A DNA stretch of 64,000 bases from Schmidtea polychroa (GCA_044892525.1 CM097887.1:14446001-14510000); one strand, 5' to 3'. Shown: positions 91 through 64,000, counted from the stretch's first letter. Notes: generated from the sequence alone by a model not told the origin. Program-made: numbers and translations.

Positions 91-310
91 GGTGGGTTAC
101 AGGTGGTCGAATGATTAAGTGCTGTTACCAGCGTAACCCAACATGCAACATTAGTTTCCACTTGGTACCCGTTGAGTAATCAACGTTGGTACTGTACCAA
201 GGGGTTGAATACTCGCAAAAAGTGAGCGCATCAAAGCACTATAATTGTCGAGTACTCCATGGGTTCACGGACTACCGATAGAAGGTGTGTGTCCGATTTC
301 TCAGGTCCCT
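91..310 (-). ncRNA. Conserved structured RNA motif, copy R1 (3' of orphan ORF F1)
   Basis: Minus strand reads GGAC-ACAC-ACC UUCUAUC GGU-AGUCC ... GAGUACUCG..CGAGUAUUC ... CUUGGUAC-AGUACCAA-CGUUGA UUAC UCAACG-G-GUACCAAG, then a UGGGUUAC..GUAACCCA hairpin. Aligns along its length with 63361-63591 and in core motifs with five other copies. Confidence 0.7.
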
Positions 311-494
311 TTATCAAAATTGTTCTCCCAACCTTACACATAAGCTCTCATTTCTCAGGCAATCATAAGCATCCCGGACATTATCTAACGCTACAAAATA
401 CGTATTATTGTAACAACAAAAAAAATAAATATTATTTTAGTACTACAAGGTATATCAAACACACTACAAAATTACATAATCATGGAGTAAAAGT

Positions 495-953
495 TCAACT
501 CGGTCGGTTGGTGGGGCCGGTTAGTCCCGTCGTCGTCGTTTGTGACGAACCCGCTTGTCTTTCGTACTCAGCCAGTCTGGCCTTCTTTAATTTTTCGCGG
601 ATGTTTCGTCCGAGCCGTTTTCTTTTGGGCTTATTTTCGGCGGCTGGGGGATATATCGCCGCGAGTTCCACGGTCAATGGCCGTATTAGCCTTGCCACGG
701 CCTCCTGCACCAACTGCTCATTTCGTTCGGTTTCGAACGCCCGCACCTGCACTTTCAGGGCTCGAATCTCCATTTGGTCCTGAGTGGCCTGTGTCTGCAG
801 CTGGAGGATCTGGGCAGTTTTCTTCTTCATGGCTTCGGGACTAAACCAGGTCCCTTCGAACTCTCGACATTTTCCCTTCAACTTGTCCACCCGGACCCGG
901 AGTTCGTCAGCACGTTGTTGGGCCTGCTCCCGATCCTTTCGGAGATTTTCCAT
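495..953 (-). CDS. Orphan coiled-coil/basic protein, EGTWFSP family copy F1 (about 152 aa from ATG 953)
   Basis: Open frame with heptad-like N-terminus, KCREFEGTWFSPEAMKKK and KPKRKRLG. Homologous by eye to 39103-39864, 53633-54422 and 63699-64000. TGTTGTGTTTTAG acceptor-like site 11 nt before the ATG. Confidence 0.65.
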   Translation of the reverse strand: MENLRKDREQAQQRADELRVRVDKLKGKCREFEGTWFSPEAMKKKTAQILQLQTQATQDQMEIRALKVQVRAFETERNEQLVQEAVARLIRPLTVELAAIYPPAAENKPKRKRLGRNIREKLKKARLAEYERQAGSSQTTTTGLTGPTNRPS

Positions 954-1188
954 TAATTTGTACACTAAAACACAACAGTTGTCAGTTTCCTTCATATCGA
1001 ATAAAATGAAAATGTAAATTATTAATTAACATTAGCAATTCCCGATTACGACCTTATTGCACTTATTCAATTTACTATATGAATTCTAAAACTCCAAAAA
1101 AGAAATTTCCTTTATTTAAATAATACACATTAGAAGATAGCGGTGCTATAGATATAATGACTAAAATAAGTTGTTTATAGTCTAATAA

Positions 1189-1545
1189 TCACGCTTGGCG
1201 TTTGCGGGGCCTTCCTCGTTTTCTCGGGGGTACCTCCAATTCTTCCAGGGGCACTCCCTCCCTTTCTGCCCGGATTTGCATCTCTATCTTCTTAAGCCGG
1301 ATCTGAGCGGCTTCCACATCCCAGGCCGCTTGATCTCGGGCCTCCTGTAACCGGTTATTCTCCGGCTCCACCTTCACCCATACCGGGGCATCTACTTCGG
1401 GGCCCGTCCGGATTACTCGATCTGCGCAATCCAGGTCCCGTCCCTGACCCCACCGATGTATATGGTACCAGATGTACCGGGTCCGGAGTCGGGTGATCTT
1501 CTGCTGGTCAGTACCCTCGTCACTGCTAGAGCTGGATTGAGACAT
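1189..1545 (-). CDS. Small orphan protein with C-terminal AT-hook-like motif (about 118 aa)
   Basis: GC-rich open frame in AT-rich DNA, ending in RKRGRPRKR (RGRP core) after a short helical segment. ATGTTTATGTTACAG acceptor 2 nt before ATG 1545. Confidence 0.55.
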   Translation of the reverse strand: MSQSSSSSDEGTDQQKITRLRTRYIWYHIHRWGQGRDLDCADRVIRTGPEVDAPVWVKVEPENNRLQEARDQAAWDVEAAQIRLKKIEMQIRAEREGVPLEELEVPPRKRGRPRKRQA

Positions 1546-2987
1546 GTCTGTAACATAAACATTAAGACCCATACATAACCGCTGTGACTTATAAATAGAC
1601 GTCACAACAAAACATACAAAAATTTCTTGTTTAAAATCAATAATACTTAACTACTACATTTATTATAATTAATATAAATACTTCTAACATACCCAAATTT
1701 AATTTAATTTATTGATATGCTTTTTAATTAAGTAAACTAAGGAAAAATTTACTAAAGTTAAGTGTTAACGTTAAAAAAATTCGTACCCGAACCGAAAAAT
1801 CTCCAAAAATGGTTTTGTTTAAAATTATTATTTTAATCATTCGGCATTTATTTACCACTGGTTGGTAATTTGGATTTTATAAGTTAAAATTTTTGAATTT
1901 TTTAGGTAATTTTTAGGTAAAAGTGAATATCTCCACTAAATGCGGTTACGCCAGGCGAAGGGTGCTAGTGGCGAGCTCAGTCTCTTGCTCACTTACTCTT
2001 CCCCTGGTTGTATTCGTTATAAGTGGGAAAATCATCATTTATCCGTTTGTGGTAATTTATTTCTTGATCTTATATACCTAATTTAGGGACAGTTTGATGA
2101 TTATTTTTCCCAGCTGGAGCTGTCGAGGTTCAGTTTCAGCAGTTCGTCCTATGACTCTTGATCAGGAAATCATGGCCTGTATTCATAAAGATTGTGTGAG
2201 TTGATTGATTGAAAGGGGAAAAATTAATATTGAATCTTTATTTAGTCGCAGTTGACGACTTGTAACCTTGCACGAACATTGATTAACTTGTTTGTATTCT
2301 GTGCGCTTTCAATATTCTATTGTCGTTTCAATATGAGATTTTTATTTGTCTAAATTTATTGCAATTGTCAAATTTTATTAGTCAGTTATTGTTGTAAGCA
2401 AATTTATTCGAACAAAGTGGTAATATTTAATGAATTTATAAATGTGAGCAACCGTTAAACATGATAAATATACTAAAGTCGATGAATGAAAGTACTATTA
2501 CCATAATATCTGCAAGTAATTTGCTTTTATATGAAGAAACCCAAATATTTGGTTGGTTTGTAATGTGGTTCTAATTTAGAAATTTTTCATCTAAGTCATT
2601 TGGTATTAATGAACATGAAGTAGTTATGGTTAATATACTCTTGCCTACTTTAATTGAATTTATAAAGAAGTTGTATGTTTGTTTTTTGTTCGGGATTTAA
2701 GGGTCAGATTGCATAGTTGCTCATACGTCCTCACCCATATCCCCCGGTGACTTGAATAATGGTAATATTTTTCTAGGGGGGGGGTGTTGCTAAAAATAGT
2801 CTTCAGAATTCTGATTCCTCTGATTGGCTCGGAGGGTCGTTTCTAAATTTAATTTCTTGGGGAAATCCTAAAATCAATATCAGATTGGGATATTAACTTT
2901 GACAAGTAATAATAATTGTTAATAATAATAATATATAATCAGTATAGTATTTATACACTTACTAATATATTCCACCATGACTAAGTG

Positions 2988-2989
<2 letters not shown>

Positions 2990-3068
<79 letters not shown>
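2990..3068. repeat. (TA)n microsatellite
   Basis: Uninterrupted TA dinucleotide run. Confidence 0.95.
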
Positions 3069-3072
<4 letters not shown>

Positions 3073-5544
3073 CTACAATTAAATTATATATATTAAGAAC
3101 AATATTAGTAAAAATAATAGTCAAGTCATATATAACTGATCATAATTAGTAATAATAGCAACAATAAGGATAACCATAATTACCATGGTAACAATAATAA
3201 TAATGTTAATGATAATAATAAGGGTCGTACTGATGATAATGATAATAATAAGATTAACATTGATAATANNNNNNNNNNNNNNNNNNNNNNNNNNNNNNNN
3301 NNNNNNNNNNNNNNNNNNNNNNNNNNNNNNNNNNNNNNNNNNNNNNNNNNNNNNNNNNNNNNNNNNNNNNNNNNNNNNNNNNNNNNNNNNNNNNNNNNNN
3401 NNNNNNNNNNNNNNNNNGATAATAAGAATAATGGTAATAATGATGGTAATGTTAGCAGTAACAGCAATAATATTAGGGTTAATATAATTTTACCTGATAC
3501 CATTCGAAGCTTATATTTCTCATTTTAAAGATTTCTATTCTATGATTTAGAAAGTTACTTTTGGTAACTTATAAATTTCCGTTCCTAATTTAAATTTTAT
3601 ATTTTTCAATTTACACATTTGTACGTTATAATTTCTAATTGTATATATTATAGTGTATAACTTAATAATTTATGATTTTGTACTTTATATTTTATAATTT
3701 TATATTTTATAATTTTATGTTTTACAATTCAGGGGTTTAGATTTTATAATTTATAGTTATATATTTCGTAGTTCATAATTTTATATTTAATAATTCACGA
3801 TTTTAGGTTTTATACTTTAGGATTTTATATTTCATAATTTATGATTTTATAATTTATACTTTATGAATTTCTAGTCAGCTTTACATGACTTTTTATAAGT
3901 TACTTTTGTGGGATCATCATAGTTTTCTAAAATGTTTTCAAGTTTGTCGGTAGCTATTCCCTGACTCTATTCCCGAAGTTCCACGTTTATGTATAATTAG
4001 TAAAGAAACATTTCCGATACCCAAAATCTATAGCTCCTAATCGGGATTTTCCATTAATGACTTACATCAATATAATTAGCTCTAAGATCTTACAACTATT
4101 TATACAATTATAGCTAAATATTTATACATTAATGAATGTTTAAAGTGGGAATTGGATTTAAAATCCTTACATTTACTTTGAATCAGCATAGCTAGATTAA
4201 GTTGTACCTGCACGTATGCCGAATATCTTTCTTATCTCTATTACTTTATCAAAATTTTCTATTACCAAATTTAGTTCGGCCTATGTCCAAGTATAATTGA
4301 AATTACTGTGATGAATCAACTAGCTACATTAATGTGAGTGCAGAATTGTGTAATTTTAGGTACGAGCTCTGCTCAAATTAGAACCTTAGTGTAGAGTTAT
4401 TATTCAGGATATTAAGTGTTGATTTTAAATATGTGTTGCATAGGAGGTCGGGAAGAATATTGCTTCCATGGCCCCACTGTGACCACTTCCACAAACCTTT
4501 GTGTTGAGTGTTGAGTCAACCATTTACGATCGACCTTACATAAATACAAAGAGTCAGGCGAAGGGTTTCCTCGACCTAACTCCATGGCAGGACCATGAAG
4601 TAGTTCGACCTCCGGCTGACCCGAACAAAAAGGGTTTTATAGATAATAATAATGCATGTGTGAATGAGAAATAGAATTTAAGAATCATACGCAGGACCGA
4701 TCAGAGACGTACTCGGACGCCGCTGATCCGTCGAGAATTACTAGAACATAAAATCTTAATAATATTCTTAATGAACAAAAGGTTGATATTAATATAATTA
4801 CGTAGCATAAAATTACATCAAATCAAAAGGCTTACCAATAATTTTCCAGAAAATTCTTCAGCAAAGTATTGGCACAAAGATTGATTGTGACTGAAACGTG
4901 TCAGTATATATACCTATTTAGTACACGTGTATGTATTGATGCATTAAAACAAACTCGAATTCTTTTTATTCCAGAATTGTCTATTTTGCGATTTTGATAT
5001 TTTTAATGGCAATTTTTGTGCCATAATTTTTGTTTTTATTTTTATATTTTTATTTTTTAATTATTTTTCGTTAAATTGACGTCCATGATGGATTTGGAGC
5101 GGTTCCAGAACATTCTATTTTACTTTTAATTTAATTTTTATTCTAACTGGTGTTTTTATGAATTTCTTTTTAAGATTTTTTATTTTTAATACTAATTTAT
5201 TTATTTTCCCTAACTTTTGTTGTTCTAGATGACTTTTGTGATGGTCATCGCCATTTTTATAGAATGTTCTGGGTTTTTCTGGAATGTTTTACTGTTTTTA
5301 TTGTTTTTTAAGTTACTCGAGTTTGTTTTTTGTAACTCTGTGTTTATTTGGTTATTTCCGAGTTCTATTTTACATAATTTTACTTAATTTCTATGTTTAT
5401 TATTTGTTGTTTTTTCCTTTAATTACTATTGTTTATTTGGTGTAGTTTTGATATATTTAGTTATACTTCTTGCTTTTTGCATGCTGTGTACTTACACATT
5501 TCAGTCACAATTAGAAATTTGGGTCTAGAAGTCAGTTCTAGCCC

Positions 5545-5731
5545 AACAGTATTGACTGTTGGCTGTTTGTCTATGATTAGAATTGCCTCTTTAAATTTGA
5601 AAATTTTTTTATGTTGTCTTGAGCTAAGATTTTATTTAAAATATTTTTCTTTCCTTCCTTGGTTGACATTATTGGAGAAATCTTTATACAAAGAATTTTC
5701 CAGTAGGATCTAGATGTTCTTTAACTCTTTA
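5545..5731 (-). mobile_element. Degenerate Penelope-like GIY-YIG endonuclease fragment
   Basis: Reverse strand AAAGAGTTAAAGAACATCTAGATCC... translates to LDP..CQP..FKEAILII.KQP with stops, matching 31760-31950. Confidence 0.7.
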
Positions 5732-6311
5732 ATTTTTCATAAAAATCATATTTATTAAAGGTGAAAATTTGAATTAATTTTCCGTTTAAATCCTCGAAAA
5801 ATAATTTTTATTTATTTCAGCCAATGAGAAGGTAGAAAGTTAATTTTAAAAAAGAAGATCAAAAAGTATTTGGAAATTGACACAAATAAATTCCAAGAAA
5901 TTGACAAGGATTATTTNNNNNNNNNNNNNNNNNNNNNNNNNNNNNNNNNNNNNNNNNNNNNNNNNNNNNNNNNNNNNNNNNNNNNNNNNNNNNNNNNNNN
6001 NNNNNNNNNNNNNNNNNNNNNNNNNNNNNNNNNNNNNNNNNNNNNNNNNNNNNNNNNNNNNNNNNNNNNNNNNNNNNNNNNNNTTAGCAATACAATATAT
6101 ATTACCATCTTGATTCGGATCCACCTTACATCATTCAGTACATAATTCGCACCAAATCAAATCCGTTCACAATAGATATGGATGTAAAGCGCCTAGAATT
6201 AAATCAAAGTAATTGTAATGATCCGTAATAAGTGGTTCATATAATTAGATGATCTATCACGTGAGTGTTGATATAATACTAAGATTCATTAAACATATTT
6301 TAATACAAGCG

Positions 6312-7954
6312 ATGAAAACTAAATTAGGTTCTTTTTTATTTATTCTTTCATTGCTTTCGTTGCACGCCTGTGTTGAGCCTAAAACGTCTTCATTTCGAAT
6401 AGCAGTGAACCAGAAAGGCCAATTCATTGACAATTATAATAGAATTCTAAAGTTCCATGGATTTAACTCCGTTAAAAAAGTCTTCCCATGGTATGATAGT
6501 CAAATATTGAATGAGACACGGCTGAAACTATACAAAGAATGGGGATTCAATCTCGTCAGATTAGGAACGATGTGGTCTGGAGTTGAACCGAATGAAGGCC
6601 AGTTCAATCAGACATATATTGGGATTTTACAAACAATTGTTGATAAATTGAACCAATATGGAATGTTCAGCTTCCTGGATATGCATCAAGATGTAATGTC
6701 CAGCAAATACAATGGTAATGATGGGATACCTTTATGGCTGGTTAACCAGTTTCCTGAACCGGAAGGTGATAACAAGTTTCCACACCCTCTAGACATAAAC
6801 ACCACCTATTCATGGGCAACGTACTATATAACCTATGCAGCCTCGGATGGTTTCCAAAATCTGTATAAAAATCCAATTGCAACCAACCATTGGAGTAATT
6901 TTTGGAAAGTCATAGCTCGGTCATTCGTGAATAACACGGCGGTTATGGGATATGAATTGATCAATGAGCCTTGGTTTGGTAACTTTTATGAGAATATGGA
7001 ATTACTTTTACCAGGTTTGATATTGTGACCATTATCATTTCTGATGGTCTTCATCATCTAGGTTATGCTGGTAGGGAGAACCTTTTGCCTATCTATGACA
7101 TACTCGTAGATGCAATTAGAACAATTGATAATGATACCCTGATATTTTATGAACCAGTGACTATAGGGGCTTACTATCCAAGCACCGGAAATCTCGGAAC
7201 TGGATTCAACCGAGTTCCTGGTCGACTTCAACAACGGGATAAATCAGTACTTTCCTATCATTATTATTGTTTCCTATTGAACAGTATGGATCCGACAACA
7301 AATTATACGCCATCAGATCAAATTTTTTGTCAGAACTTTTTTATGAAGAATGTATGAATATTTGCATTTGTTTTAGTGTAGCAATTTCCTATTTTTCTAT
7401 TTTATAAATATTTCTCTTTCACTTGAAATTTTAATTTCTACATTTAGGTTTTTGAATCGGCCGCGAAAAACATCAATGAAACCGGTGGAGGATCCTTGTT
7501 ATCAGAATTCGGAATATGTATTCCAGATGGCAACCCTCACTCTATCAATACTCAAGAATGTGAGGCAGTCTTGGAGAAAACCGAAGAATATTATCAAAGT
7601 TTCACATATTGGGATTCGATTTTCTTCGATTCTAACGGAGCGATTCTTCCAAATGTTGTCAAAATGTTCGCCAGGACCTACCCGAGAGCATTACAAGGTC
7701 AACCAATCAAATACTCGTTCAATATGACCTCCGGCTATTTTCAATTATCCTATGAAATAGATTTGACAATCGCAGCGCCAACTGAGATATTCATCCCAAT
7801 TACGGTTCATTACGTCCATGGATTCGTCAATGAGACCTTTCCGTTTATGCCGACTCATTTTGATAAGGATAATTTTATATTTTCTATAATGGCGGATGGC
7901 AAAACGAAACATCGGGAAAATGTTACTGTCATTATTAAACCTCTTTCTATATAA
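6312..7954 (+). CDS. Endoglycoceramidase-like GH5 glycoside hydrolase, copy A (exons 6312-7014, 7062-7351, 7448-7954; 499 aa)
   Basis: Signal-peptide-like N-terminus; motifs WGFNLVRLG, LDMHQD, GYELINEP (acid/base), SYHYY, LSEFG (nucleophile), RTYP..QG; two GT-AG introns restore one continuous frame. Confidence 0.9.
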
Positions 7955-12094: not shown

Positions 12095-15000
12095 GGGGCC
12101 ATCCATATATTATGTACGCAAAAAAACCACGAATTTTGACACCCCCCTCCCCCTGTTGCATCTCGTACATTTTCACCTCCCCTAATGCGTACGTTGCTCG
12201 GCGGTCCCAACCCGTGTATTAAAATGCATTAAATATAAACATTTAAAACAATTTCTTTTTAATATAAAATGTATAATATACAGATAAACCAATTTAGTTG
12301 TTACTGTAATGGTTGTAGATGCGTCTTACGGATGTAATAATTATGTGAGTCAATTAAAAACTATAAAACCCGACTAATTACCAATCTAATCATAATTGTT
12401 CATAGAAGTGTATACACAAAGATATCCTATAACCTAAACTGAATATAATTTAATACAATGAATAACATAAACTAAAAATTGCGCATTGCAGTTTATTCCT
12501 TTAACCATCCTCCGTTTCTAATCCCGTTTGCAACCACTCGAATAAATTCTGAATGACTGGCATCGCGCTGTTCTGCATTTCACTGACAAATGGCATCAGA
12601 ACCACATCATCATTAGCTTCGATAACAGGTGGTGCAATGGTATGCACATCTTCATGAATGATTCTGTGTCGCTTTAAGCTGGCCTGTGATGCATGATATA
12701 TCCCGCATTCGGGACAAATTCTTTTTTCCTGCTCGGTTTTGGAAATTGATGGACAGTATGTGTCAAACGGAGAGTCTAGAGGCACCTTAGATGATACAAA
12801 TCCCACTCTTTGTGCGAGAGAACTATAATATGGCTTACTAAGTGCAGTTATCATACTTGCTTCTGGAACACACAACCCTTCGTTCGAATGCGCTAGTACC
12901 ACCGGCCCTGGAAGAAAACGCTGTGGGAAATAAGTTTTCCATGAACTACGCCATGGTTGACAACAGTCACGTTCGTCGCATCTGATAATTTGCATGAAGT
13001 ACTGGCTCTGTCTAACATGAAATGCTACCCACTTCGGACAAATTTCATCATGTATTGCGGCTATATCAATTGGAGATATATATTCAGCGGATACTTTATG
13101 ATTGTCAATCATTAACTCCGACCATATTTCTGCAAGAGTTGTTCCGGCCCTCTCAAAATTTTGCTTCTCTTTTTCGGTATCTACTGTTTTCCCGGAGGCA
13201 TCAAGATGTGAACCGAAGTGGTCGTGAGGCAGTACCAAGCCTGCTAGTTCACGGCTAAGTGGGGCCATACGTCTTTCCACTCTATTGTATGCTGAATAGT
13301 GAGGTGCATTGGTACCTATCAAGTATGCATCAAGGTTCCATGATTTAAACCGGGCTATGGCAACTTGAAGTGGTTTGGGGAAACGTGGATTTTCATCTGG
13401 TCCCCCATCGCAGGCAATGATAAATATTGGCTTGACTTGACCTTCAGATGTGCTCATGATCGGTTTGAAACTTTCAACTGTTCTAAGACGTTCCAGGTCA
13501 TGACCATGTGTAAACGCAGTACTGCTGTCATGTTTCATGGATCTTATGGCAATGTATGTGGGGCCTGAATATGCGACGGCATTCGTAAATTTACCGGGAT
13601 TGATAACACATGCGGCATATACCGACGGAATCAGTTTGTGACGAGCAGAAACAGCAAAGTCATGGTCCGGCAGTCTGACTTTGTATTCCGGGTGCATCAA
13701 TATCGGTGCTTGTTTCGTCGCTGCCGCTAAACCCAGAGGTATCTTTGCTTTGTCATCCATGCTTATAAAACAACATGCTCTTTCCCCAAACATCCCACAT
13801 ATTTCATCCAGGTAGGCCATGGATGCGAACACGAAGGCTGCATCTTGATGACGTTCATGGGCGCTGTTTTCGGCCCGGATCAGCTTAACGGGCACAGTCG
13901 TTATATGCCGTTTTCCTTCAAGTGACGACGATTTTCTAGGCAAGAGTCTGAGATACGTTGCTGATCGGGATATGTTGTATCCTTGTGTTGCTAGTGATTT
14001 TTGTAAATCATCCAAAGTTTTGCATGATCTCAATTCTTCAGAACGACGACGATCACTGGCTGCAGCCCCGATTGAGGCGATTCTGACTATTGCATCTAAT
14101 AGATCTGACTGATCTACTGCTATTGCTGATTTACCGACCTTATCGCGTATAAACTTGCGGAGCTTTTCCCCCAAATGTGGCATTTCGACTGCTATTTCCT
14201 GTATTGTGTTTTTGATTTCTCTGCGACGCTTGCGTTGGCGATCAGCTTCATCTTCCAATCTTTTCAGTTGTTGTTTTTTCTTTTTAATATCAAACTCAAC
14301 TGTATTCATTTTCAATTTCAAATCTTCAGTCATCAATCCGGCATCTCTTATTCTAATCAAAGCTAAAATTTGTGCATTAAGTTGTGAGATGTCTATAGTT
14401 AGGCTCTTTTGTTTAGGCGCTTCTGCTGCGTGCTTATTTTTTGCCACTGTCTCAACAGTACATATTTTAGTACGTTCGTCCGCAACAAAAGTCGATGCCT
14501 TGTCTGTTGATGGGGGTACAACTGTCTCCTCAACAATTGAAGTAGAGCCTTTTTCGACTTTTCTGCTAGAATCAGTAGATACTGGCGGTTTTTGGGTACT
14601 GGGACGAGCCCAAAATGCCATTGGGGTGCTCTTCTGTCGCAACGAATTTCTCAAGATGTCATTCATTACCGAATCATAATTTTTATCACCATTTTTAATC
14701 GCCCCCCACAAACGATTTGCTTCCTTCTGCTAGGATTTTTTCGTATTCTGAGGCATGGAATTCCACACGGCAGCATACAGTCGGTTGTATCGATCAGTGT
14801 TATCCATTGGGGGAAAACTAATTGAATATATTTAATATAATTTTACGGAGCAATTGGTTAGTTTTTAATAATACGTAAATGGCACATCAAGAACATATTG
14901 GTATTATTAAAAACTAAAACTATTAAATCAAAAAACATCTCAATCTTTTAAAATTAAATTTGTACCAATAGTAAATAAATTCGCATCAATGTTGAATAAA

Positions 15001-15328: not shown

Positions 15329-16530
15329 AAAAGAGAAAAGAACAAAAAATCCGACGAACAGTAATTGAAAGAAGAAATTTAGTAATTCAAAAATGTAAGA
15401 GTCGTACAAGAAAATTGATTGCCCCTGGGTTTTCTACCTTGTCGAGAGGAAAATTGACTGGAGAGAAAGGTGCAACTTTGTGATAATTGTGCTAGGTTAT
15501 ATGATCTGGTGAATAGATTTTTCTTAACACAGATTATATCTGACTGCAAAGATATATAAAAATATGTGCGTGTATATACTAAAAGATTTATTAATTATGC
15601 ACAAATGTATACAAAATTGATTAACCCAAAATTTGCCGCTGATACTATAAAGGAAAGATTATCGGTTAAACAAACCGTCCTCGGATATAAGAAACAAATG
15701 CTGGATCTAATTGCTCTCAACACTGTATTTGAAGTTAGGGACAAGATGGAGATATTACCCGAATTTTTCGCTATCGTCTAGATCAAGATTGATCTAGCGT
15801 TTCCTAATATTTTACACTCTTGATAATTTAAATCCAACGAGAAATTCAGGCAGAAATGCTACTTCTCGTAGTCGGGCTGTGCAATTTAAAATAAGAAATT
15901 CCAATAACCTTATGACTAAGAAATTCTTTTGGTTTTCTTTGGACGAAGCAGTACAAAAAATTGTTCTGAATTTACTAGTTTACTGATACTGTTTATATAC
16001 TCTTTTCTGTGACAACAGCTGTTTTGACTTTTCCACAATTCGTTTTAAATTTCTCCACCAATGTAATTACAAATTAACTACTTTACTCTCGTTGAATTGC
16101 TTATTTGTATAATCAATATTGATTTTCAGCTCTGAAAAATTGTCTTTCTCCCTATTTTTGAAAGTCATGACATATATTATTATTATTATTGTGATTATTA
16201 TTGTAAAACGTGCAGAACTAAAGCGGTCACAACGAGACTTATCGAATAGTCAAAACAGACATTTTATTGCAATGTTCGGAGTTTTGACAATAGTAGGTTT
16301 TGTGAATTCGAATACAAATATACCTCGAGTATTGTTTTTTTTAATTGTTTTTATAGAACACGTGGAGTCAAAAACACCGACTTTATTATTTATTTATTTG
16401 AAAACTCAACAGATATATGATGAAAATTATATATTTATATAATGAGGAAATTTTATTCCACAAAATACATATTACGTAATCTCTCATATATAAACGACAG
16501 AAAGCATTATCTTTGTCATTCCATTTCACA

Positions 16531-35280: not shown

Positions 35281-35281
35281 G

Positions 35282-46146: not shown

Positions 46147-46304
46147 TGGACAATGAATAATGACGTAAGACCTCCTATCGGCAGTCTAGAACTCGAAAAG
46201 AAAATACAATGAGGAGTAGTTTTAGCAATAGACCTCACCTGCTCATTGATTTTCGACCATTGTGTACAGTGCCAACATGGTCGTCGCCATGGGTACACAG
46301 ATGG
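46147..46304 (+). ncRNA. Conserved structured RNA motif, copy R4 (no recognisable upstream ORF)
   Basis: GAC-GUAAG-ACC UCCUAUC GGC-AGUC; AAUGAG..GAGUAG..CUCACCUG-CUCAUU; UGUGUAC-AGUGCCAA-CAUGG..CCAUG-G-GUACACA. Confidence 0.7.
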
Positions 46305-48864: not shown

Positions 48865-49596
48865 GAACCAAATTTGCCAAGGACTGGCCCGAAGCCGTGC
48901 TTTTCTTGCGCGGACAAAAATACAACTATACGCCAGCTGTCAAGATTGGCAGACTTAAGAAACGTATTGATCTACTAAAAGGAACGTGGTTCTCCCCACC
49001 ACTGATGAAGGAGGCCAACCAGAAGATACTACGCCTGGAGCACTGTCGAGAAGTTTGCTAGAAAAAAGTCTTTGCCAAAGTCTCACAATTAAAGCTCAGT
49101 CAGAGACCCTTCATCGCATTTATTCTGAAGCAGAATTGAAAACAATGGGTCACCGATTTTCCTGTCATCGATAAAGATAATATTTTTCCGGTCCACCATA
49201 TGACCAACGAAGCTCGTACCCGTTCTACATCGACTTGTCGCAAACATGGACCCCAAGTGTCATCTTCGCCTATTTCAGATGTTGTCTTCGTTGAAACTAG
49301 TGTGCTCCCGGCCAAGGCGTCGAGTGCAATCTCTTCTCTACCCACTCCGGCATTTCCGCCGACAACTTTGAATCCGCTGAATTCTAGAAAGCGTAAGCGT
49401 ATCACCTGTACAAAGCGCTCAAAGAAGAGACTCGACAAACTAGCCATTGCTGAAGCAACATTGTTTGCAGTTCCTGCTACCGTAAGAGCTGGTAGTGTCT
49501 GATCCTCCTCAGTATAGAGTCGTACCCGCAACTGGTACTCCACTGATCATCGACCCACCGTTGGGGATCTTGAGAAAAGCCGAAGATGCCATGTAA
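48865..49596 (+). pseudogene. EGTWFSP-family pseudogene F5
   Basis: Fragments EPNLPRTGPKPCFSCADKN / LKKRIDLLKGTWFSPPLMKEANQKILRLEHCR / SLLEKSLCQSLTIKAQSETLHRIYSEAELK / RKRKRIT..AEATL / YRVVPATG..IIDPP; several frameshifts and no ATG. Confidence 0.8.
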
Positions 49597-49840
49597 CAGC
49601 TAGAGCGTTTCTAGCCATCTACAAAGCCGTATATAGTCCTGGGCTGGTGGATTATCTCAATGATCCCGACTTCTCATATATCGTGATTTGATGATTTGAG
49701 GCATTGTAGCGTCTCGTATGTTGTGATTTCAATATAACTCGGTGTCGTTTACCCCGCCTTATTTGTCTTCTGAAATTGTAAGAGATTTGGTCTGGCGGTG
49801 AAGTAGAAAGGAAAGACAGAGTAGTTAGAGATAACCTCTA

Positions 49841-50007
49841 CTGGACCAGAGGTCTTGTCAGTGTGTCAGTATAGAAAGATAATGCGGGTGTAAGTCCTTC
49901 TATTAGTATTCCAGGACCCGAAAGGCGAATGTCATGAGAGTAGTACTAACACAGGGGCTCATCTGCTCATCTATAGCACCAACATCACCATTGTCATGGG
50001 TACACAG
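49841..50007 (+). ncRNA. Conserved structured RNA motif, copy R5 (partly decayed)
   Basis: CUGGACCAGAG, GUAAGUCCUUCUA..AGGACCCGAA, AUGAG-AGUAG..GGGGCUCAUCUG-CUCAU, AGCACCAACAU..CAUGGGUACAC; 5' strand of the last stem lost. Confidence 0.65.
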
Positions 50008-50741
50008 TTGGTATAGAAATAACAATCATAATGGGACTCTGATTAATTTTATTACCTGTTGATTTAATGCAAATCTATTGTTAATTAATTTTAATTAAAT
50101 TACAATAAATAAAATATTCTTAAATTAGCTAAATATTCTAGAAAAACATCTCAGGTGACATTTCAAGAAATAATAGTTTGGCTAGAGAGTAACGGTTTCA
50201 CTAAAACTTATCTTATTGAGAATTAGATTCGTGATGAGTTTGATTATGCTTCAGCCATGCTGGAACGTCATGCAGAAGTTTTTATAAATATTGTTTCGAA
50301 TAACGGCATTTAATTATAAATCGATAATTATGTAGGGTAGTGAAAGGGAAATTTTTGGAAGTGTGACATACGATTTTTGCAAAGAGAAACGAATGAATAC
50401 GAGAATAGAACGTTTTTCCCCACTTGTAACCCACCATTTTTATAAATATTGTTAAACAATTTTCATTCCCAAAAAATTTGATTTTAGAGTTATATTGTAA
50501 AGTATTTTTATTTTCCAGCACTTCTTTCTCACTCTTATACAAACTTTTAAAGATTACTTGAATTAATTTATAAAAATCTTTTAATTAAAAATTTTAAAAT
50601 AATTAATAAATTAGAAAACAAATTATAAACTAAATTGATTATAAAAATAAATCATACGTCAAATTTCATTTTAATTGTTTTGTTTGAATTTTTAGATTAT
50701 AGTATATAACTAAATAATAACTGGAAATAATAATAATAAAA

Positions 50742-51105
50742 ATGGTTCGAGAACTAGCAACTGTTAATGAATTTGACGAACTTTTGGGTTCTACCGATAA
50801 GTTAATTGTTGTTGACTTTACTGCTACATGGTGTGGTCCTTGCCAAAAGATCGCACCGATTTTCAACAATTTATGCCAGGAATTTCCTGATGTCGTTTTC
50901 GTTAAAGTTGACGTGGACAAGAACAACGTATTTATTATTATTTAAAATTAATTATGTTTAGTGAATATTTTTTTAGGAAACGGCAGAGAAATGCAAGGTG
51001 ACATCAATGCCAACATTCCATTTCTACAAGGATAACAATTTGAAACACCAATTTAGTGGAGCATCTGAAGATAAGCTGCGAAAAGCTATTACTGAGAACA
51101 AATAA
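50742..51105 (+). CDS. TXN: Thioredoxin (exons 50742-50927, 50977-51105; 104 aa)
   Basis: VVDFTATWCGPCQKIAP, VFVKVDVD, then ETAEKCKVTSMPTFHFYK after a 49-nt intron. Confidence 0.95.
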
Positions 51106-53632
51106 AGATGTTTAAATTGAACACTGTTTTTTAGAAGTGTTAATTAATAAAAATTGTGTCTTATTAATGTAGTGTATTTTAATTATATTTTTCCTGCAAT
51201 TGTTTACAAAATTCTTTTTGACTACTTTATTTACATAATTAAATTCGAGTAATTGCCGTAGGTTAGAAATAATGCTTTCAATTTCCAGTCAAAAATACAG
51301 TTTATAGGATGATAAATATATAGATAATGTTATTACTGTAATTATGCAATTGATTTAACTAAAAATTTACAATAGTTAAATTATAAATTTTTTCATTTAC
51401 TCTTATGACAGAAAATGTTCTAGTTTTAGTGACAACAATCGATATGTAAACTAATAAAATTCTACAAATGCCTCATAAATCAAAAGTAGTCATTTTGTTG
51501 ATATGTAAATTATCTAAAAATAGATTTGTTTGTAATGCCTTTTTGAAATTTGTATTTAAACTTTATTTGGATTAAATTTCAATTATTTTCAAACTAAAAT
51601 AGTTAAACAATTGAAATTTTTTTTAAATATTTTATTTTTACAAATTAATTTATTTCAGTTATTTTATTTAACAATCATAATTTTTCTTGTAATTTCAACT
51701 CAGATTTGGGACAAATTTATTATATAATATTATAATTAGGGTTGCTTAGTTCATAAAACAAATAAATTTTTATTTATTTTTCTACATAATGAAAGATTAA
51801 ATTGTAATAAATCTAAGCTAAAACTAAGGCCAATGATATAAATGTGTAGGAGCAATTAGACTCCGTCGGAGAGAGAAAATGTTGAAACGGGAATGATGAA
51901 TGGAGACTCGGAATAATGTTGGACTATGCGTCAATTTTACTGAATCAAGCACTCAAATTTGACCAGAGCTAGGAACATGAGGAATTAGTCCCGGGAATAG
52001 ACAAATGGGAATGGGTTGTAACGAGCCAGGTCGAATAAAGTTCCGTAGAAACTACATCTGAAGAGGAGGATAAATTGAGGATGTGAGGTAAGGGGTGTGA
52101 TCATTTAGAATAAGATTACTTAAGAAAGTTAGGTATTGGACATGCAGCCATTTAGAATAGAATTGCTGAAGAAGAGGAGACTCTAATAGTTATCGAGGCA
52201 TGAGACACTGTCAAACGAAATTAGAGTCCTGCAGATTATGTGATCACTATAATCATAATTTTGTTTATTTTATTTTTAATTTATTTATCCGTAATATGTA
52301 TGGCCAGACCCGTTTGGGCGAACTTTTGGGTATTGCTGGCACTTGTGCCGATGGTAATCAGATGATTCTCGCAGATCGGCACACCGGAGGTACAGGTCTG
52401 ACACGAGAGATTTTGAAGTTCGTGTGTTTTGAAGCCAATGGATAGAGAGCAGAGGTTCTCCACATAATGAACCCAGATCTACGAATACATAAACGAAAGC
52501 CTTCCATCAATCAGCCATGATCGTAAAGATAGAATTCCACTAGCATAGAAGCCATAATTCCAACGGTCGTACTTGATTTCACCGAAACCTTTATCCAGAC
52601 GCGTATTTCCTGAAAGGGATTCGACTCAGTCATCGTCGTATGTCACCTTCTAACAAATTGACCTGTTCCGTCCAGAAAACTCGATTTTCCACGGCTAATT
52701 GATATAACCATTAGTTATTTAGTTATGAGATTCTGGAGAATTAGAGAACGCAGAATGAACATTAGAATCTCTATTTATGATGATCATCTTGCATCACCTT
52801 CTTGATAAGTAAATTGACATAACACCCGGTCTATGCTAGAACCGTTCACAGATTGTTGATATGTTCCATCCTGCCAGTTCAGAATAATCGCCGCTTTCCA
52901 TTATCATAAGGGAATGTAAACAGGAAGTCATCAACGATTCGTTGTAGATCTATCCAGATTGTTTATTTTAAAGCACTAATGACACGACGTAATCTAATCT
53001 TAAAATCAACTACATGATATCGTGATATGTACGAATAAATTTGCCTGTTAACTGAGAAAGGATATGGTCAAAGCTGTAGGTTAGATTCAATAATGATGTC
53101 GAATAATAAAATGAACCGTGGTCTTAAAAATGCACTACTATAAAGCTAAAGGTTTTTAAGGTAACAAAACGGGTTGAGGTGCGAAGGTCGTCCCTGTAAC
53201 ATTTGTGTCTATTTTCTTTTATTTATTTTTTATACTAATTATTTTCAGGTCCAAAAGTTGTTAATTGCGTACAACAAATTTCACGATTAAGAAAATTAAG
53301 GGTACTCTAGAGTGGTTTGCTCGGGATGTTGTTTATATCTTATGCTGTTTGGTATGATCACATAAAATCAGGCCCATTATGAAATGATTTATAAACCTTT
53401 GTAAAACCCACCGAACTGTCGAAAAGTAAAATAAATGCCCACGACCTGCGATCAAATCTCACTCCCAAATAAACGTAATTATATAATTGAGTTCGATAAA
53501 ATGCGACGGAAAGGGGTCACATTATCCAGTAGCGATAATATTTAAGGAGGATTGATTAAGTATATGCGTATGAGGAATGATGTAAAAATTTATTTGGTAA
53601 AGATCTTGATTTCTTTTTTAAATTTCCAGCTT

Positions 53633-54422
53633 ATGTCGGAACCGAATCTACCAGCACGCGCCCCGAAACCCTATTTTTTGAGCGCCGACAAAATCGCGAA
53701 CTTGCGACAATTGAATGAATATATAAGGGTCCTGAAGAAGCGTATCGATAAGCTAGAAGGCACGTGGTTCTCCCAGCCACTTATGAAAAAAGCAAACAAG
53801 AAGATCTTGCGACTTGAGCACTGCCGTGACAGCCTGCTCGAGGAGAGCCGATGTCAGCGGCTCACCATCAAGGTCCAGTCCGAGGCCCTTCACCGAGTCT
53901 ACTCAGAAGCGGAATTAAAACGTCGCACCAATGAATACCCGCTAGCGGACAAATTAAAAACTTTTCCAATCCATCACCAAACAGACGAGACTAGTGTCCA
54001 GTCCACCTCCAAATGCCACGGTCATGGCCCAGAGACACCTCCTATCGTCGCTCTGTCATAGTTAGTATAGGACCTACGGGAATGCAGTCGGTCCACACTA
54101 ATGTCGCGACATCACCAGTCTTACCAACAAAGCAGCAAGGCATTCCGTTGCAGTATAATTCCCGGAAAAGGAAACATCTGACCCGAGTGGAACGGTTAAA
54201 AAGCGTGGAGACGAGATCGCCGCATTAGAAGCCACTCTGTTTGCCGTCAAGGAGGCTAGCAAAAATCCGCCCCCGCGTAATCTCATCGCATCACACACAA
54301 CGACTCCTTATCGAATAATTCCGTCATCTGTACCTATACTCTTTTGTGACCCACACTTGCAGACAGACATCGACACCATGGTGGAGGAGTATGAAATGCC
54401 ATCGATAAATCCAGATTCGTAG
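53633..54422 (+). pseudogene. EGTWFSP-family copy F6 (two frameshifts in the 3' half)
   Basis: MSEPNLPARAPKP..ADK..LKKRIDKLEGTWFSQPLMKKANKKILRLEHCRDSLLEESRCQRLTIK; later frames give NSRKRKHLTRVER and KRGDEIAALEATL..YRIIP..DPHLQTDIDTM; TTTTTTAAATTTCCAG acceptor 3 nt before the ATG. Confidence 0.8.
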
Positions 54423-54672
54423 CCAGACGAAAACCTATGCTCGAAATAGAGGCAGCTGTAAGCATCTGAATTGATGTGTGTTGAGTAACAAAATAGTGTG
54501 AGCCAATTAGTTGATATCCTTGATGATTGTGTGTATATTTTGTATTGGATTTAATATAATTTGTTGGAAAATGACTTGTGTTATCACGTTTTTGTCATGT
54601 GAGTTCCTACCGGAAGGTGTTTTTCTCCAAATAAGCGGTCATACTGGAACGAGAACTTGAAAACAGTCTTAC

Positions 54673-54854
54673 TTGGACCAGAGGCATGTTATAACTGACA
54701 GAGGCGAGTAAAATGGATGTAAATCCTTCTACGGCATTCACGAACCCGAATGGTGAATACTGTGAGGAGTAGTCCTAACACAGCGTCTCACCTGCTCACA
54801 GATTCCAACCCATGTGTACAGTACCAACATGATTCGTCGTCATGGGTACACATG
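54673..54854 (+). ncRNA. Conserved structured RNA motif, copy R6
   Basis: UUGGACCAGAG; CC UUCUAC GG; UGUGAG-GAGUAGUCCUAACACAGCGUCUCACCUG-CUCACA; CAUGUGUAC-AGUACCAA-CAUGA..UCAUG-G-GUACACAUG. Confidence 0.75.
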
Positions 54855-55509
54855 AGGGAGAATACTGTCGAATCATAATTCGGCGTTTAGGAAGGAGTCC
54901 CCTACGAAATGACTATCATCACCACTAAATGACCATCCTCGTGACACATCCTTAAGCGCCCAACAGGCGAATAAACGAATTACTATTGTAAACAATTTAG
55001 AGAAAAAGTGGTGAAAAGAGGATAATTAAAAGAGAACTATTTATTCGCTATGTATTTTTTACTAAACGCTATGCATTTTATAAACACTTTCTATGTAGAT
55101 AAATACACAGTATCAGTAGAGTAAAACACTTTTATATTAATTAATTAATTCTAGATATTTAATACATTCACTAAGTAACTAATTAAAAACTATGTAAAAT
55201 AAATAAATGTCAAGTCAAGAAAATAAGTTATAAGTAAAAACAAAAAAAAGATATGTAAATTAATAAAATCCATCAATAAATCTTAATTTTTTCTAAGATG
55301 TTCTTAGATCTTATTTTTTTTCGACAATTATTACAAACTTTCAATAAAGCGGTATGTTTTTCTACGTAAAGTCTTAGAACTCTAATCATTTTGTTTAAGT
55401 CTTTTTTTTTCATGTGATCTGATTTAATTTATTATCCAAGTTTCTGAATATTTATTAGCCCAAATATTTATTTATTATAAACAAAATTTAAACAAATACT
55501 GAACTTATA

Positions 55510-58659: not shown

Positions 58660-59639
58660 CATAATTTATAAAAAATAACTATAAATAGGGTAAATAAATA
58701 AGATAAAATCACCAGAAAACTCATAACAGTAGTCAACAGAATTCAAAAGTAAAATTCCACTATTTATTGTGAATAAATATGTTGAGGTAAAATTAATTTG
58801 TTAGCATGTTCTTGTCTCAAGGCCAATAAATTTTTACTTTTCATTCGACTCATTTTTAGGAAATTATAGGTAGAATATTTAGGTACCGGATCGAAGGATC
58901 ACTCGTTCAAAGATTCCGACTTTATTTTTTTAGTTAATTAAATGAATTTAACAATATTTCAATTTCAGAGAGCTTTTATGGCTTTAATGCGATGTGTAGG
59001 AAGAATGATGAAAGGGGAATCTAAAATGTTTTTGAGCCAGACGAGGGGACTGGAATTCAAATATTATAAATGACATTTTGGAAAAGCAGAAGTGATGATG
59101 TTTGGAAGGTTTCAATTAATTTTTTCATTTCTCGTTTTCTTTTGTTTAAATTTTATATAATTTTTTTAATATTTAACTCTTAAACAATTTTTTGCTATTG
59201 AAATAATTTATGGCAATTTTTTTCAATTAATGACATGTACAATACACACCAAGTAATCACGAACGGACGGATACCCGAAAGTGGTCAGACCTACTCCTGG
59301 TCGTCATGCGAAAAAGGTTCGAGTGAGACCGGTAGGCAAGACTCGAAACCTTGTTTCCCGGCTGAATCTCTTAAATTGACAACTAAAGTGGAGCGAGAGT
59401 ACACAAATTAAACTGTAGAACACAAAATTTGAGCAGACAAGTGGAAAGAGCAGTTGAATAAATTCCGCAAGGCAAGAGAAATGACAATAAGAAGGAAAGG
59501 AAAACTGAGCCAAAATCACGATTAGAAAAGATGGATGCCCCCATGAGTTATTAAATGTTCATTATTGATAATTACGTTATATTGCTATTATGGATGGGGT
59601 AGTATTAATACCATCAACGCTTTTAATTTAAACTTAATA

Positions 59640-60020
59640 AGCATATTTGCAGTGGATCTGATAGCGAAATTCCGTATAGAAGTAGGAAACACTATAAGTT
59701 GGAAGCAGTTTGCGAAGCCGAGATGGCCGAATCTATGGGACTGGAAATGCAGCAGAATTGAAGCGACATGGTTACGACCCGAAAATGTGCGCAAATTGAA
59801 CCAAAGGATCAAAGCAGTCGAGAATCAAGGGATCGTTCGAGATTTCAAGATCACGATTCGAAAACAGGCACAGAAGATCATCGAGCTTTGTGTCGGGATC
59901 CACACGAATTATACGGAGACCAAATTATTTCCGGCGATTGCAGCGTTAATTTCAAAAATTCCTGCAGTTGCTTCAAGTGATAAAAGGCCATGTACACCAA
60001 GGCCAGTAAGGTTTGAGTGA
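59640..60020 (+). pseudogene. Distant EGTWFSP-family relative F7
   Basis: RIEATWLRPENVRKLNQRIKAVE...KITIRKQAQKI aligns with EGTWFSPPQMKEERKKILRLE...RLTIKAQSEAL; 5' part appears frameshifted; no downstream RNA motif seen (an LTR starts 90 nt later). Confidence 0.5.
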
Positions 60021-60109
60021 AGGAGATTCTGGGAACTGAAAATGAATCGGAACACTGATCAGAAAAAATGAGAAAACATTATTTTTACTGTGCTTTGTTT
60101 TATTGCTTG

Positions 60110-62362: not shown

Positions 62363-63139
62363 CGACTACTCACATAGTAACAAATAATATCTTTGTTACT
62401 CACATAAAGATATCCTTGTGTCTTTGTTTAATTTACACGTGTCATGTCTTTATATGAATAATAAAATTAATAATATTTATGCCAATAATAATAATTATAA
62501 TAATAATAATAAGATATCAAACAAAAGGTAATTCAAGGGTGAGTATGATGGTTGTTGAAAAGTTCGATGATGTATATTTATGTATTTATGTTTGTAGATG
62601 TGTGTATGTCAGGGAGATTTGAAGAGCCCAGCCAAGTCTCCTTTAAAAAGAACTGTCTCGTGACAGTTGGGGTGAATGTATGTATGGTGAAAGACAAATA
62701 TTTATTAAGAAAACAAACAATAACAATTTTAGGATTTAAAAAATTTTATTTACAAAACAATAAAAGAAAAACCTCACTGTACTCTTTGTTAGTTTTCGAC
62801 TTTTTTCTTCTCTAACATTTTTCGTTAATGTCTGTTAAATACAAATTCGAATAAAAGAAATACAAGTTACAAACAATATTTCTAGGAAAATTTATCAAAA
62901 GGAATAAATTTTGTTAATTTTAGGGTATTTGATTTACTTCCTCCTTTATTAATTTCGTTAAGATTTGTTATATACAAATATAATTATTTCGTTCCAAAAA
63001 ATATTTCTGAGAAATATTTACCAAAACGAATAGATTTAGGACATGAATTCAGTTTTTAAATAGAACCGTACTTAGACGAATTTTCTTAGAGATACAAAAA
63101 TAAATTTTTTATTGGCTTTTTATTTTGTGTCAATTTTTC

Positions 63140-63175
63140 TATAGCGATAATTTACTATAGTAAATTATCGCTATA
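63140..63175. repeat. Perfect 36-bp palindrome
   Basis: TATAGCGATAATTTACTATAGTAAATTATCGCTATA equals its own reverse complement; a partial copy is at 57697-57726. Confidence 0.95.
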
Positions 63176-63360
63176 TTGTTTTTTTATTTTTTAAATTTTT
63201 TCTACACGCAACAAGCGACTATTAGAACTACAATCCATATTAAACAATAAAAAAATATAGTATAACAGTATATTACAATGGTCATACCCTCGAAGGTGTA
63301 TGGTGGGACCTCGACCTTCAAAGGGCCAAAAACCTTCGAATTTTTTAAAAGCTTATAATT

Positions 63361-63591
63361 GGTGGGTTACAGGTGACCAACATTTTACCTTGTCGTGCTG
63401 TTTCCAGCGTAACCCAGAATACAATAGTGTGTTACCATTTGATAGCCGTTGAGTGATCAACTTTGGTGATGTATCAAGGGTTTGAGTACCAGCAAAAAGT
63501 GAACATACCGCCGTATACTATAGTTGTCAGGTACTCATGGTGGTTCGCGAACTGCCGATAGAAGGCGTGTGTCCGACTTCCTTTAGGTCCC
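63361..63591 (-). ncRNA. Conserved structured RNA motif, copy R8 (same subfamily as R1)
   Basis: GGAC-ACAC-GCC UUCUAUC GGC-AGUUC; GAGUACC..GGUACUC; UUGAUA..AUCACCAA..GUUGA/UCAAC..UAUCAA; UGGGUUAC..GUAACCCA. Confidence 0.7.
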
Positions 63592-63698
63592 TACCTCATC
63601 AATTTCATCTCTATGGTGATGGTTAATTGATCCTAAGATTTGCTTAATTATCAGACTAGAGATATTTTTTTGACAATTATTACACTATTATATAAAGT

Positions 63699-64000
63699 TT
63701 ATGATATATGGTTCGGGCCCGTAATTGGCTTGATCTGCATTTTGAGCTGGGCACGTTAGGCTTTTCCCAGACGCTTTTATTTAGGCACGGCGTTCCGTCG
63801 TTTGGCGATCTCCGTCATCTCGACCACCACAGGTCTGACTCGGTTGATCACAACTCGATCTATGATTGCTTGATTCTCTTAAGTTTCCAGCTGCCGTACT
63901 CGCAATCGAAGTGCTTTCATTTCCACATGATCTTGGGCAGCCTGGAGTTGCCACTGTTGCATCAGATTCATGCGCTTGTTCATTTCTGTAGGGCTGAACC
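63699..64000 (-). pseudogene. EGTWFSP-family copy F8 (5' part outside window; three in-frame stops)
   Basis: FSPTEMNKRMNLMQQWQLQAAQDHVEMKALRLRVRQLET*ENQAIIDRVVINRVRPVVVEM..PK*KRLGK aligns with F1 FSPEAMKKKTAQILQLQTQATQDQMEIRALKVQVRAFETE..LIRPLTVEL..KRKRLGR. Confidence 0.75.

Follow-up and report, generated by a model that had tools for sequence, protein, structure and literature searches.

What kind of element spreads a small coiled-coil gene together with a folded RNA through a 64,000-nucleotide stretch of the Schmidtea polychroa genome (GCA_044892525.1 CM097887.1:14446001-14510000; referred to here, in its whole length, as the window)? Eight islands in this window, labeled F1, F2, F3, R4, and F5 to F8, carry a related open reading frame (ORF), a related RNA motif, or both, and a sequence-only reading had described them as a stand-alone unit of an unrecognized class. 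All eight were found where that reading had placed them, and they are mutually related. They are, however, very probably the 3' parts of long terminal repeats (LTRs), mostly solo LTRs, of giant Burro-type Ty3/gypsy elements, in which the LTR holds a selected, likely spliced gene and a covarying RNA that likely acts in cis by the tRNA primer site.

The parent family is already published, so the islands represent no new class of element; what appears to be undescribed is the coding and structured content of the LTR. The usual view is that LTRs are non-coding and that solo LTRs are inert promoters. The solo LTR described here keeps a whole predicted gene under strong selection (ratio of nonsynonymous to synonymous substitution rates, dN/dS, about 0.03 in the core) and an RNA fold common to very diverged LTR types, at at least 5,000 places in the genome. 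Such LTR ORFs can be mistaken by annotators for an orphan host gene family. If the protein does regulate the RNA or the promoter of its element, the LTR would represent a Rev- or Tas-like system outside the retroviruses.

Long terminal repeats and their Ty3/gypsy parent elements

Self-BLAST of the window paired positions 90-310 with 63360-63592, F3 with F5 and F6, and R4 with F6. Searches with the natural ORFs of the window (tblastn) linked F1, F2, F3, F5, F6, and F7 at E values of 1e-50 to 2e-3, with no matches in a reversed-window control, and a profile of the ORF core matched F3, F6, F1, F5, and F8 (independent E value 1e-5) as well as the C-terminal half of the ORF of F2. F7 matched the same profile at an independent E value of 0.09 (best control 0.3); hhalign gave it a probability of 62%, and one of its relatives 93%. 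F7 is the weakest member of the set. The RNA motif is present at F1, F2, F3, R4, F5, F6, and F8 in two related types, type A (F2, F3, R4, F5, and F6) and type B (F1 and F8), and a type A profile recovers type B at an E value of about 1e-5. This profile also located a ninth, partial copy of the motif at 38350-38431 (+), absent from the earlier list. The states of the copies are those described before: F1 and F3 are intact, F5 and F6 are broken, F8 contains stops, R4 lacks the ORF, and F7 lacks the RNA. An 18-base hairpin-core pattern has 5,239 matches genome-wide (control 0), and three exact matches lie in the window against 0.43 expected from that number (Poisson P 0.01); the window is locally enriched for a very common repeat.

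A search of the 781-Mb genome with the F3 protein returned 7,066 candidates, 150 of which were scored, and many candidates lie in same-strand pairs about 26.3 kb apart. In three F3-type pairs the two members form a direct repeat 4.23 kb long, at 99.9-100% identity and with termini TGTTGGG...CCAACA, and positions 38564-42787 of the window match this repeat end to end. A 4-bp target-site duplication (TSD) borders 8/8 F3-type insertions examined, of which three are two-LTR elements and five, including F3, are solo copies, and 4-bp TSDs were also found at F2, in 2/2 F1-type insertions, and in 2/2 R4-type insertions with both ends in view. The earlier claim that no LTR or TSD belongs to the islands does not hold for F3 and F2, which have TG...CA ends and 4-bp TSDs, nor for F1, in which the LTR is followed by a primer site. 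All type A copies with an intact 3' end share a CC(C)AACA-like terminus, which lies 100-150 nt past the RNA motif. The copies and their parts are as follows (window coordinates, strand in brackets).

59-81 (-): F1 primer-binding site, 23 nt, for tRNA-Pro(TGG) plus CCA, 8 nt past the LTR end
90-5548 (-): F1, 5' LTR of 5,459 bp, type B; TGTTGGG start and CCCACCA end; 93-94% identical to paired and solo LTRs
158-285 (-): F1 structured RNA core, type B; CCUUCUA, a UAGU/GCUCAC stem, and a AGUACCAA-loop stem as in type A; z score -4.2
495-953 (-): F1 LTR ORF, 152 amino acids (aa), intact; coiled coil, EGTWF, coiled coil, and basic patch; acceptor-like TTTTAG 11 nt ahead of the ATG; dN/dS 0.12
1189-1545 (-): second F1-type LTR ORF, 118 aa; acidic start, WYHIHRWGQG core, and RGRPRK end; acceptor-like CAG 2 nt before the ATG; dN/dS 0.28
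22755-25496 (+): F2, solo LTR; TSD ATAT; 1.87-kb deletion at about 24495; RNA motif at 25226-25368
38220-38432 (+): ninth, partial copy, R4-like, with the 5' half of the RNA motif (motif part 38350-38431)
38564-42787 (-): F3, complete solo LTR of 4,224 bp, type A; TGTTGGG...CCAACA; TSD ATAA; 91-99% identical to the LTRs of three full-length elements
38680-38820 (-): F3 structured RNA core, type A, ending about 115 nt from the LTR end
38968-38973 (-): F3 candidate poly(A) signal, recognized by sequence only, between the ORF stop and the RNA motif
39103-39864 (-): F3 LTR ORF, 253 aa, intact; CxxC, two helices, linker, RKRKR basic patch, and acidic-hydrophobic tail; TTTTCTAG immediately before the ATG
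42209-42286 (-): F3 predicted promoter (reverse CCAAT plus TATA) and first donor CAG/GTAAAC, as motifs
44755-46304 (+): R4, member of a short ORF-less LTR subfamily; TGTTGGG start, 3' end lost; RNA motif at 46162-46300
48227-50035 (+): F5, LTR fragment with a frameshifted ORF from about 48865; RNA motif with an internal deletion at 49881-50011; 3' end lost
51917-54965 (+): F6, old LTR with a broken ORF from 53633; CCCAACA end at 54965; RNA motif at 54716-54854; 5' end uncertain, with a candidate at 51917 and a mismatched TSD
58900-60109 (+): F7, fragment belonging to a third, distant type; homologous ORF at 59547-60020; LTR status putative
63360-64000 (-): F8, 3' end of an old type B LTR; CCCACCA at 63360; RNA motif at about 63395-63565; ORF with stops

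At other places in the genome, LTRs of these types enclose elements of 30-39 kb. A 30.7-kb type A example contains, between its LTRs, a RING ORF, a 4,732-codon ORF (stop to stop), and a TRAF ORF. The long ORF encodes gag, CCHC, a Monjiviricetes-type fusion glycoprotein, protease (PR), reverse transcriptase (RT), ribonuclease H (RH), integrase (IN), and ankyrin repeats, with the fusion domain preceding PR. The best solved-structure match of the type A RT is Ty3 (E 8.5e-118), a placement made by comparison with solved structures. An F1-type element of about 38.7 kb has a pol 74-76% identical to that of type A, along with MATH, BIR, and fusion domains; the BIR domain was seen only in the F1-type element, and RING, MATH/TRAF, and ankyrin cargo is also present across the elements. 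The parent of F1 itself extends leftward past the window, where RING, zf-CCHC (gag knuckle), MATH, and fusion ORFs were identified close to the window edge (locus L049), and a search of 40 kb on that side gave no 3' LTR of this element.

A primer site of 18-23 nt, complementary to host tRNA-Pro plus CCA, begins 7-8 nt past the end of the 5' LTR and was found behind 8/30 F3-type ends (loci L001-L030). A gap of this size between the LTR end and the primer site is larger than usual. Ahead of the 3' LTR, where a polypurine tract would be expected, both element types have a conserved GC-rich hairpin-like motif instead of a simple run of purines (L034:3230-3270, L176:7640-7684). The primer tRNA of these elements, tRNA-Pro(TGG), is encoded in a long tandem gene array with 475-bp spacing from G000:C1:130901009 (L064); the tRNA-Pro(TGG) pattern has 2,212 matches genome-wide, some of them primer sites. 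An ORF resembling cyclin-dependent kinases by eye occurs twice in an inverted duplication adjoining a full-length element (L036-L040).

These features bear on the earlier proposal of an independent, non-autonomous unit of ORF and RNA, either served in trans by a Penelope-like RT or descended from an RNA replicon. A GIY-YIG relic in the window (31670-31990 (+), not part of the LTR unit) and the many fragment copies without visible ends would fit such a unit. The TG...CA ends, 4-bp TSDs, primer site, and gypsy pol speak against it and rule it out for F1, F2, F3, and their subfamilies, which are LTRs of gypsy elements; as a general explanation it is extremely improbable. The parent gypsy element encodes its own RT instead of borrowing a replicase, and an RNA replicon is contradicted by the linked enzyme being gypsy pol and by the lack of matches to the motif in Rfam and in viral contigs. 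The pieces are non-autonomous in that alone they are unable to replicate, and the view that the islands are mobile DNA with copies being born and dying is supported. When the two LTRs of an element recombine with each other, a solo LTR is left behind, and solo-LTR formation followed by decay would produce the observed mix of intact and broken copies.

Identity to the nearest relatives is 97-99% for the intact F1 and F3, compared with 89%, 80%, and 73-77% for the broken F2, F5, and F6, respectively. The deletion in F2 takes out the first half of its ORF, and the ORF of F8 starts about 100 nt past the right edge of the window. Relatives of F5 also end in CCCAACA. The DNA downstream of F7 is replaced by a different repeat at 60110, and a degenerate RNA motif lies 300-600 nt downstream in 2/10 F7 relatives examined, at E values of 0.08-0.33 only. 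Relatives of R4 are collinear with it, and 2/12 R4-type loci are complete at both ends, measuring 1,156 and 1,690 bp; these two have TSDs and the RNA motif and no ORF. Two ORF matches within the 12 loci belong, by position, to neighboring LTRs of other types. The linkage of ORF and RNA proposed in the sequence-only reading is not obligate, since the R4-type subfamily lacks the ORF.

That only young copies are intact and older ones are broken indicates that selection acts in replicating lineages and not after insertion. This makes a fast-turnover host gene family, which had been among the earlier candidates, or host domestication of solo LTRs very improbable, even though strong purifying selection and thousands of copies with a predicted promoter would suit either one.

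The predicted gene and the folded RNA of the LTR

The LTR ORF is under strong purifying selection. For a set of 48 intact, non-redundant F3-like ORFs, dN/dS was 0.10 over the whole length (876/1,128 pairs, near-identical and saturated pairs having been dropped) and 0.03 in the core, residues 12-115 (551 pairs, dS 1.17). Shifted frames of the F3 type gave ratios of means of 1.4-2.8 where computable, the linker excepted; with the F1 type included, the computable ratios are at least 1.3. The F1-type ORFs (n=17) have a dN/dS of 0.12 (121/136 pairs), and the second F1-type ORF at 1189-1545 has 0.28 (34/36 pairs; two members frameshifted).

The core of the F3 protein is modeled as two helices (residues 15-41 and 48-101) with a break at EGTWFSP (monomer predicted template modeling score 0.39). 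Both protein types have a basic patch of 10 R+K in 17 residues, 5-6 of them R, which would fit an arginine-rich RNA-binding signal and a plain nuclear localization signal equally. A short heptad helix follows the patch, and an acidic-hydrophobic tail is found in the F3 type only (median charge -5 over the last 20 aa; tails DIDEML, DLEALF, and DISALL). The predicted protein with coiled coil and basic patch and the structured RNA of the earlier reading both hold up.

Searches for relatives of the LTR ORF returned nothing in Pfam at E 0.01 (chance-level matches only up to E 1), 0/464 candidates in a word-indexed protein search of lengths 139-443 aa only, a generic coiled coil as the best match among PDB profiles (E 0.003), no viral model at E 0.001 or better with Foldseek, and a best ESM Atlas value of 0.88, under the lead threshold. 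A profile search of 1.84 billion representatives gave one match: two short ENA contigs encode an unnamed protein of 157 aa that is F1-like and 36% identical. A metagenome scan for LTR-ORF-related loci gave 121 pattern matches, none of them confirmed. The second F1-type ORF (118 aa) has no Pfam match; its RGRPRK end is presumably AT-hook-like. The sequence-only reading had itself named an outcome that would refute it, a known transposable-element ORF with the RNA as an LTR segment; the RNA is indeed an LTR segment, and the ORF matched no known family.

The F3 LTR has, by LTR position, a reverse CCAAT/TATA at 502-526, a donor-like CAG/GTAAAC at 574, the ATG of the ORF at 2,924, AATAAA at 3,815, and the RNA motif from 3,968, and the promoter layout of F2 (23103-23128) is equal to that of F3. 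In a strict acceptor test, 6/8 LTR-ORF starts pass, compared with 2/76 and 3/87 ATGs in the two LTRs, and the two failing starts have CAG 2-3 nt before the ATG. These signals suggest that the LTR gene is likely spliced. Three internal ORF starts fail the strict test but have a TAG within 2 nt. This TAG, at most 2 nt from the ATG of internal RING/TRAF ORFs (L032:1444-1938, L049:8883-9362, L033:8772-9998), suggests that cargo genes may also be reached by splicing. Contig data were not used as evidence. Contigs of three presumed-RNA runs and one unlabeled run were compared with most of the F3 LTR; of 24 joints, the 15 listed include none with splice-site ends. These contigs partly cover the F3 ORF and motif and cannot settle starts, ends, or levels. 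One contig has an A-run end shortly past the predicted start, a position that would then be the poly(A) site in place of 38968. Within the predicted F3 LTR intron, blocks 41413-41674 and 41806-41936 (-) have more contigs than their flanks, an excess that suggests further conserved elements in the intron.

The RNA, about 140 nt long, consists of two covarying stems with near-invariant loops (CCUUCUA, GCUCAC, and AGYACCAA) common to LTR types that are otherwise hard to align, and its spacing from the primer site is constant. For type A, 112 matches were reduced to 54 at 93% identity, of which 47 were aligned and seven shorter copies were left out. A 21-pair structure, obtained with RNAalifold plus one manually set helix and counted on the alignment from which it was derived, has 95.5% of cells paired across the 47 copies, with slid controls at 36-49%, and 167 double changes versus 51 in shuffles. 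In the outer 3' stem, a gap-free count found nine pairs at 44-47 of 47 copies, and the G-U:A-C ratio of 39:2 in this stem favors the sense strand. A tree count gave 28 switches over 11 pairs, 1-4 each. Type B copies fold into the same two stems and the same loops as type A. Against Rfam, the motif gave only sub-threshold microRNA and small nucleolar RNA noise; the hairpin pattern had three matches in metagenomes, attributed to chance by profile and context, and none in viral contigs.

The type A motif opens with a conserved donor-like GTAAG (window 38811-38820 (-), 44/47 aligned copies), which type B lacks, and holds a near-invariant GCTCACCTG resembling the 5' end of host U1; GCUCACCUG of the motif has a likeness to the same U1 end by sequence. 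A pairing of the GUAAG of the motif with its own GCUCAC was dropped, as no covariation was seen by eye.

Several points weigh against reading the islands as LTRs with a selected, spliced gene and a cis-acting RNA. No full-length parents were found for the F5, F6, R4, and F7 types, and two close F6-type pairs held no pol; the TSD of F6 is mismatched, and one end or both are missing from F5, R4, F7, and F8. Choosing the F3 ORF set by protein similarity lowers dN, only open frames were admitted to any of the ORF sets, and the pairs are non-independent. The 21-pair count is not independent of its alignment either, the RNA copies fall into a few subfamilies (1-4 switches per pair), and the single-copy fold z score is strong only for F1 (-4.2) and R4 (-2.4), with the other 5/7 copies at -1.7 to +0.3. 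No homolog of known function was found for the LTR protein across protein family, structure, and fold searches, and CRM1-type leucine-rich export-signal patterns match only within the coiled-coil heptads, save one further match in 18/48 F3-type proteins.

Candidate roles of the LTR protein and its RNA

In the mechanism that we propose, transcription would begin from the TATA about 500 nt into the LTR, and a short first exon would be spliced to the acceptor ahead of the ATG of the ORF, yielding a small nuclear coiled-coil protein with a basic patch. Because the predicted 2.3-kb intron is still present in the two LTRs of young elements, it is unspliced RNA that must be copied; spliced RNA would make the protein while unspliced RNA is copied. 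The retention of the RNA in the ORF-less LTR subfamily suggests that the RNA likely acts in cis and the protein likely in trans. The protein would most likely be a trans-acting accessory regulator of the RNA or promoter of the element, and the folded leader would serve priming, packaging, or export of the unspliced genome.

A specific version of this mechanism is a pair resembling Rev or Rex and its target, in which the LTR RNA would be bound through the basic patch, the coiled coil would mediate multimerization, and the complex would export or spare the unspliced genome. It is consistent with the helical core and the 10 R+K in 17 residues of both protein types, with splice signals at the LTR ORF of an element whose intron-containing RNA needs copying, with retention of the RNA where the ORF is lost, and with Rev-like features as described in PMC3856414. 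However, no clear export signal is found among the LTR proteins, the motif sits beside the primer site, where any LTR leader structure is expected, and the match between ORF type and RNA type is explained by linkage alone, with binding putative. We consider this version possible, though not probable.

Alternatively, the protein may be a Tas/Tax-like activator of the LTR promoter, in which case the RNA would have nothing to do with the protein and would be a leader for priming or packaging, recognized by Gag and tRNA-Pro. The acidic, hydrophobic tail of the F3 type, the short heptad helix after the basic patch, the AT-hook-like RGRPRK end of the second F1-type ORF, and the fixed distance between RNA and primer site all point this way. 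We give the activator only tentative credence: the F1-type protein shares the core but not the acidic tail, and no match to DNA-binding families was found.

The cargo of these elements suggests another target for the protein, namely host silencing, apoptosis, or ubiquitin pathways rather than the RNA or promoter of the element. RING, TRAF/MATH, BIR, and ankyrin domains are carried by the elements, and LTRs can do without the ORF in cis. PIWI targets include BURRO1, the transcripts of which rise on PIWI loss (PMC8532177). A host-directed protein is nevertheless unlikely, as no host-domain likeness was found in family, profile, and structure searches, and the LTR location is unlike that of the other cargo.

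Taken furthest, the regulatory mechanism would mean that a gypsy-class element independently evolved the control circuit of complex retroviruses within its LTR: the product of a spliced LTR gene, a coiled-coil protein of basic character, would bind the conserved leader RNA and so determine what becomes of the unspliced genome, and thousands of solo LTRs, each a self-contained transcription unit, would supply the regulator in trans throughout the host genome. This broader proposal is doubtful.

Other genes of the window and comparison with known systems

The window also contains genes and elements apart from the LTRs. A glycoside hydrolase family 5 gene, which we take to be endoglycoceramidase-like, is present as an inverted, 97%-identical duplicate at 6122-7953 (+) and 29616-31439 (-), and an innexin gene lies at 16480-17789 (+). 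An intact 742-aa ORF at 12501-14729 (-) has a C-terminal C2H2 finger and otherwise no Pfam match; by eye it is presumably DDE-transposase-like, unclassified. A piggyBac-like DDE_Tnp_1_7 transposase at 26315-27274 (-) and a Tc5/pogo-type transposase at 33803-34897 (-), the latter between 28-bp inverted repeats (33479, 35087), are not part of the LTR unit. Between F5 and F6 lies a small thioredoxin-like gene, 50742-51105 (+), with WCGPC by eye and one short intron.

The parent elements are probably of the Burro type, a placement that follows the published description of Burro/GYPSM1 and not an alignment to the deposited Burro1-4/GYPSM1. PMC6431247 describes planarian Burro/GYPSM1 as elements of more than 30 kb in thousands of copies, with env between gag and PR and with RING, MATH, BIR, and ankyrin domains. 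The elements studied here are likewise longer than 30 kb (30.7 and about 38.7 kb), with multi-kilobase LTRs and thousands of copies; they share one giant ORF (4,732 codons here versus 4,900-5,100 aa), a mononegavirus-like fusion protein between gag and PR, gag, CCHC knuckles, RT, RH, IN, and ankyrin, and RING, MATH/TRAF, and BIR cargo. The BCL2-, SUMO-, and dUTPase-like domains of Burro, for which PMC6431247 used HHpred, had no match here by Pfam, phmmer, or PDB. ORFs, splice signals, or conserved RNA inside the LTR are not mentioned in the part of the Burro text available (PMC6431247), and the accessible portions of PMC11410931, bioRxiv 10.64898/2025.12.11.693146, and PMC13524379 hold nothing on LTR content. 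No published account of an ORF or RNA within Burro LTRs was found in a search that had the primary Burro paper and Repbase outside it, which is not proof of absence.

In complex retroviruses, Rev-like proteins solve the export of unspliced RNA (PMC3856414). As in the Rev/RRE (Rev response element), Rex/RxRE (Rex response element), Rem, and Rej systems described there, a small basic helical protein, here from a predicted spliced RNA, is found beside a structured cis RNA, and as in retroviruses of the Rev/Rex type, an env-bearing element would be obliged to export unspliced RNA. Unlike Rev, Rex, Rem, and Rej, the LTR protein has no sequence or fold likeness to them and no clear export signal, its RNA binding is putative, and its gene lies wholly within the LTR, downstream of the predicted promoter. 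RxRE and the HERV-K Rec response element (RcRE) are located in the LTR.

Stem-loops in the U5/primer-site leader occur in retroviruses and LTR retrotransposons. The RNA described here is similarly a sense-strand structured RNA at the LTR end, just ahead of the tRNA primer site, and is retained in ORF-less LTRs. It differs from U5 leaders in having no Rfam match and in its design: over about 140 nt, it keeps both covarying stems, along with loops that hardly vary, across diverged LTR types.

Coding sequence in or overlapping the LTR and reached by splicing is known from mouse mammary tumor virus sag, lentiviral nef, and foamy virus bel/tas, all of them in or overlapping U3 of the 3' LTR. In contrast to these genes, the ORF described here lies about 2.4 kb downstream of the predicted TATA, a position from which a solo LTR could hold a whole transcription unit.

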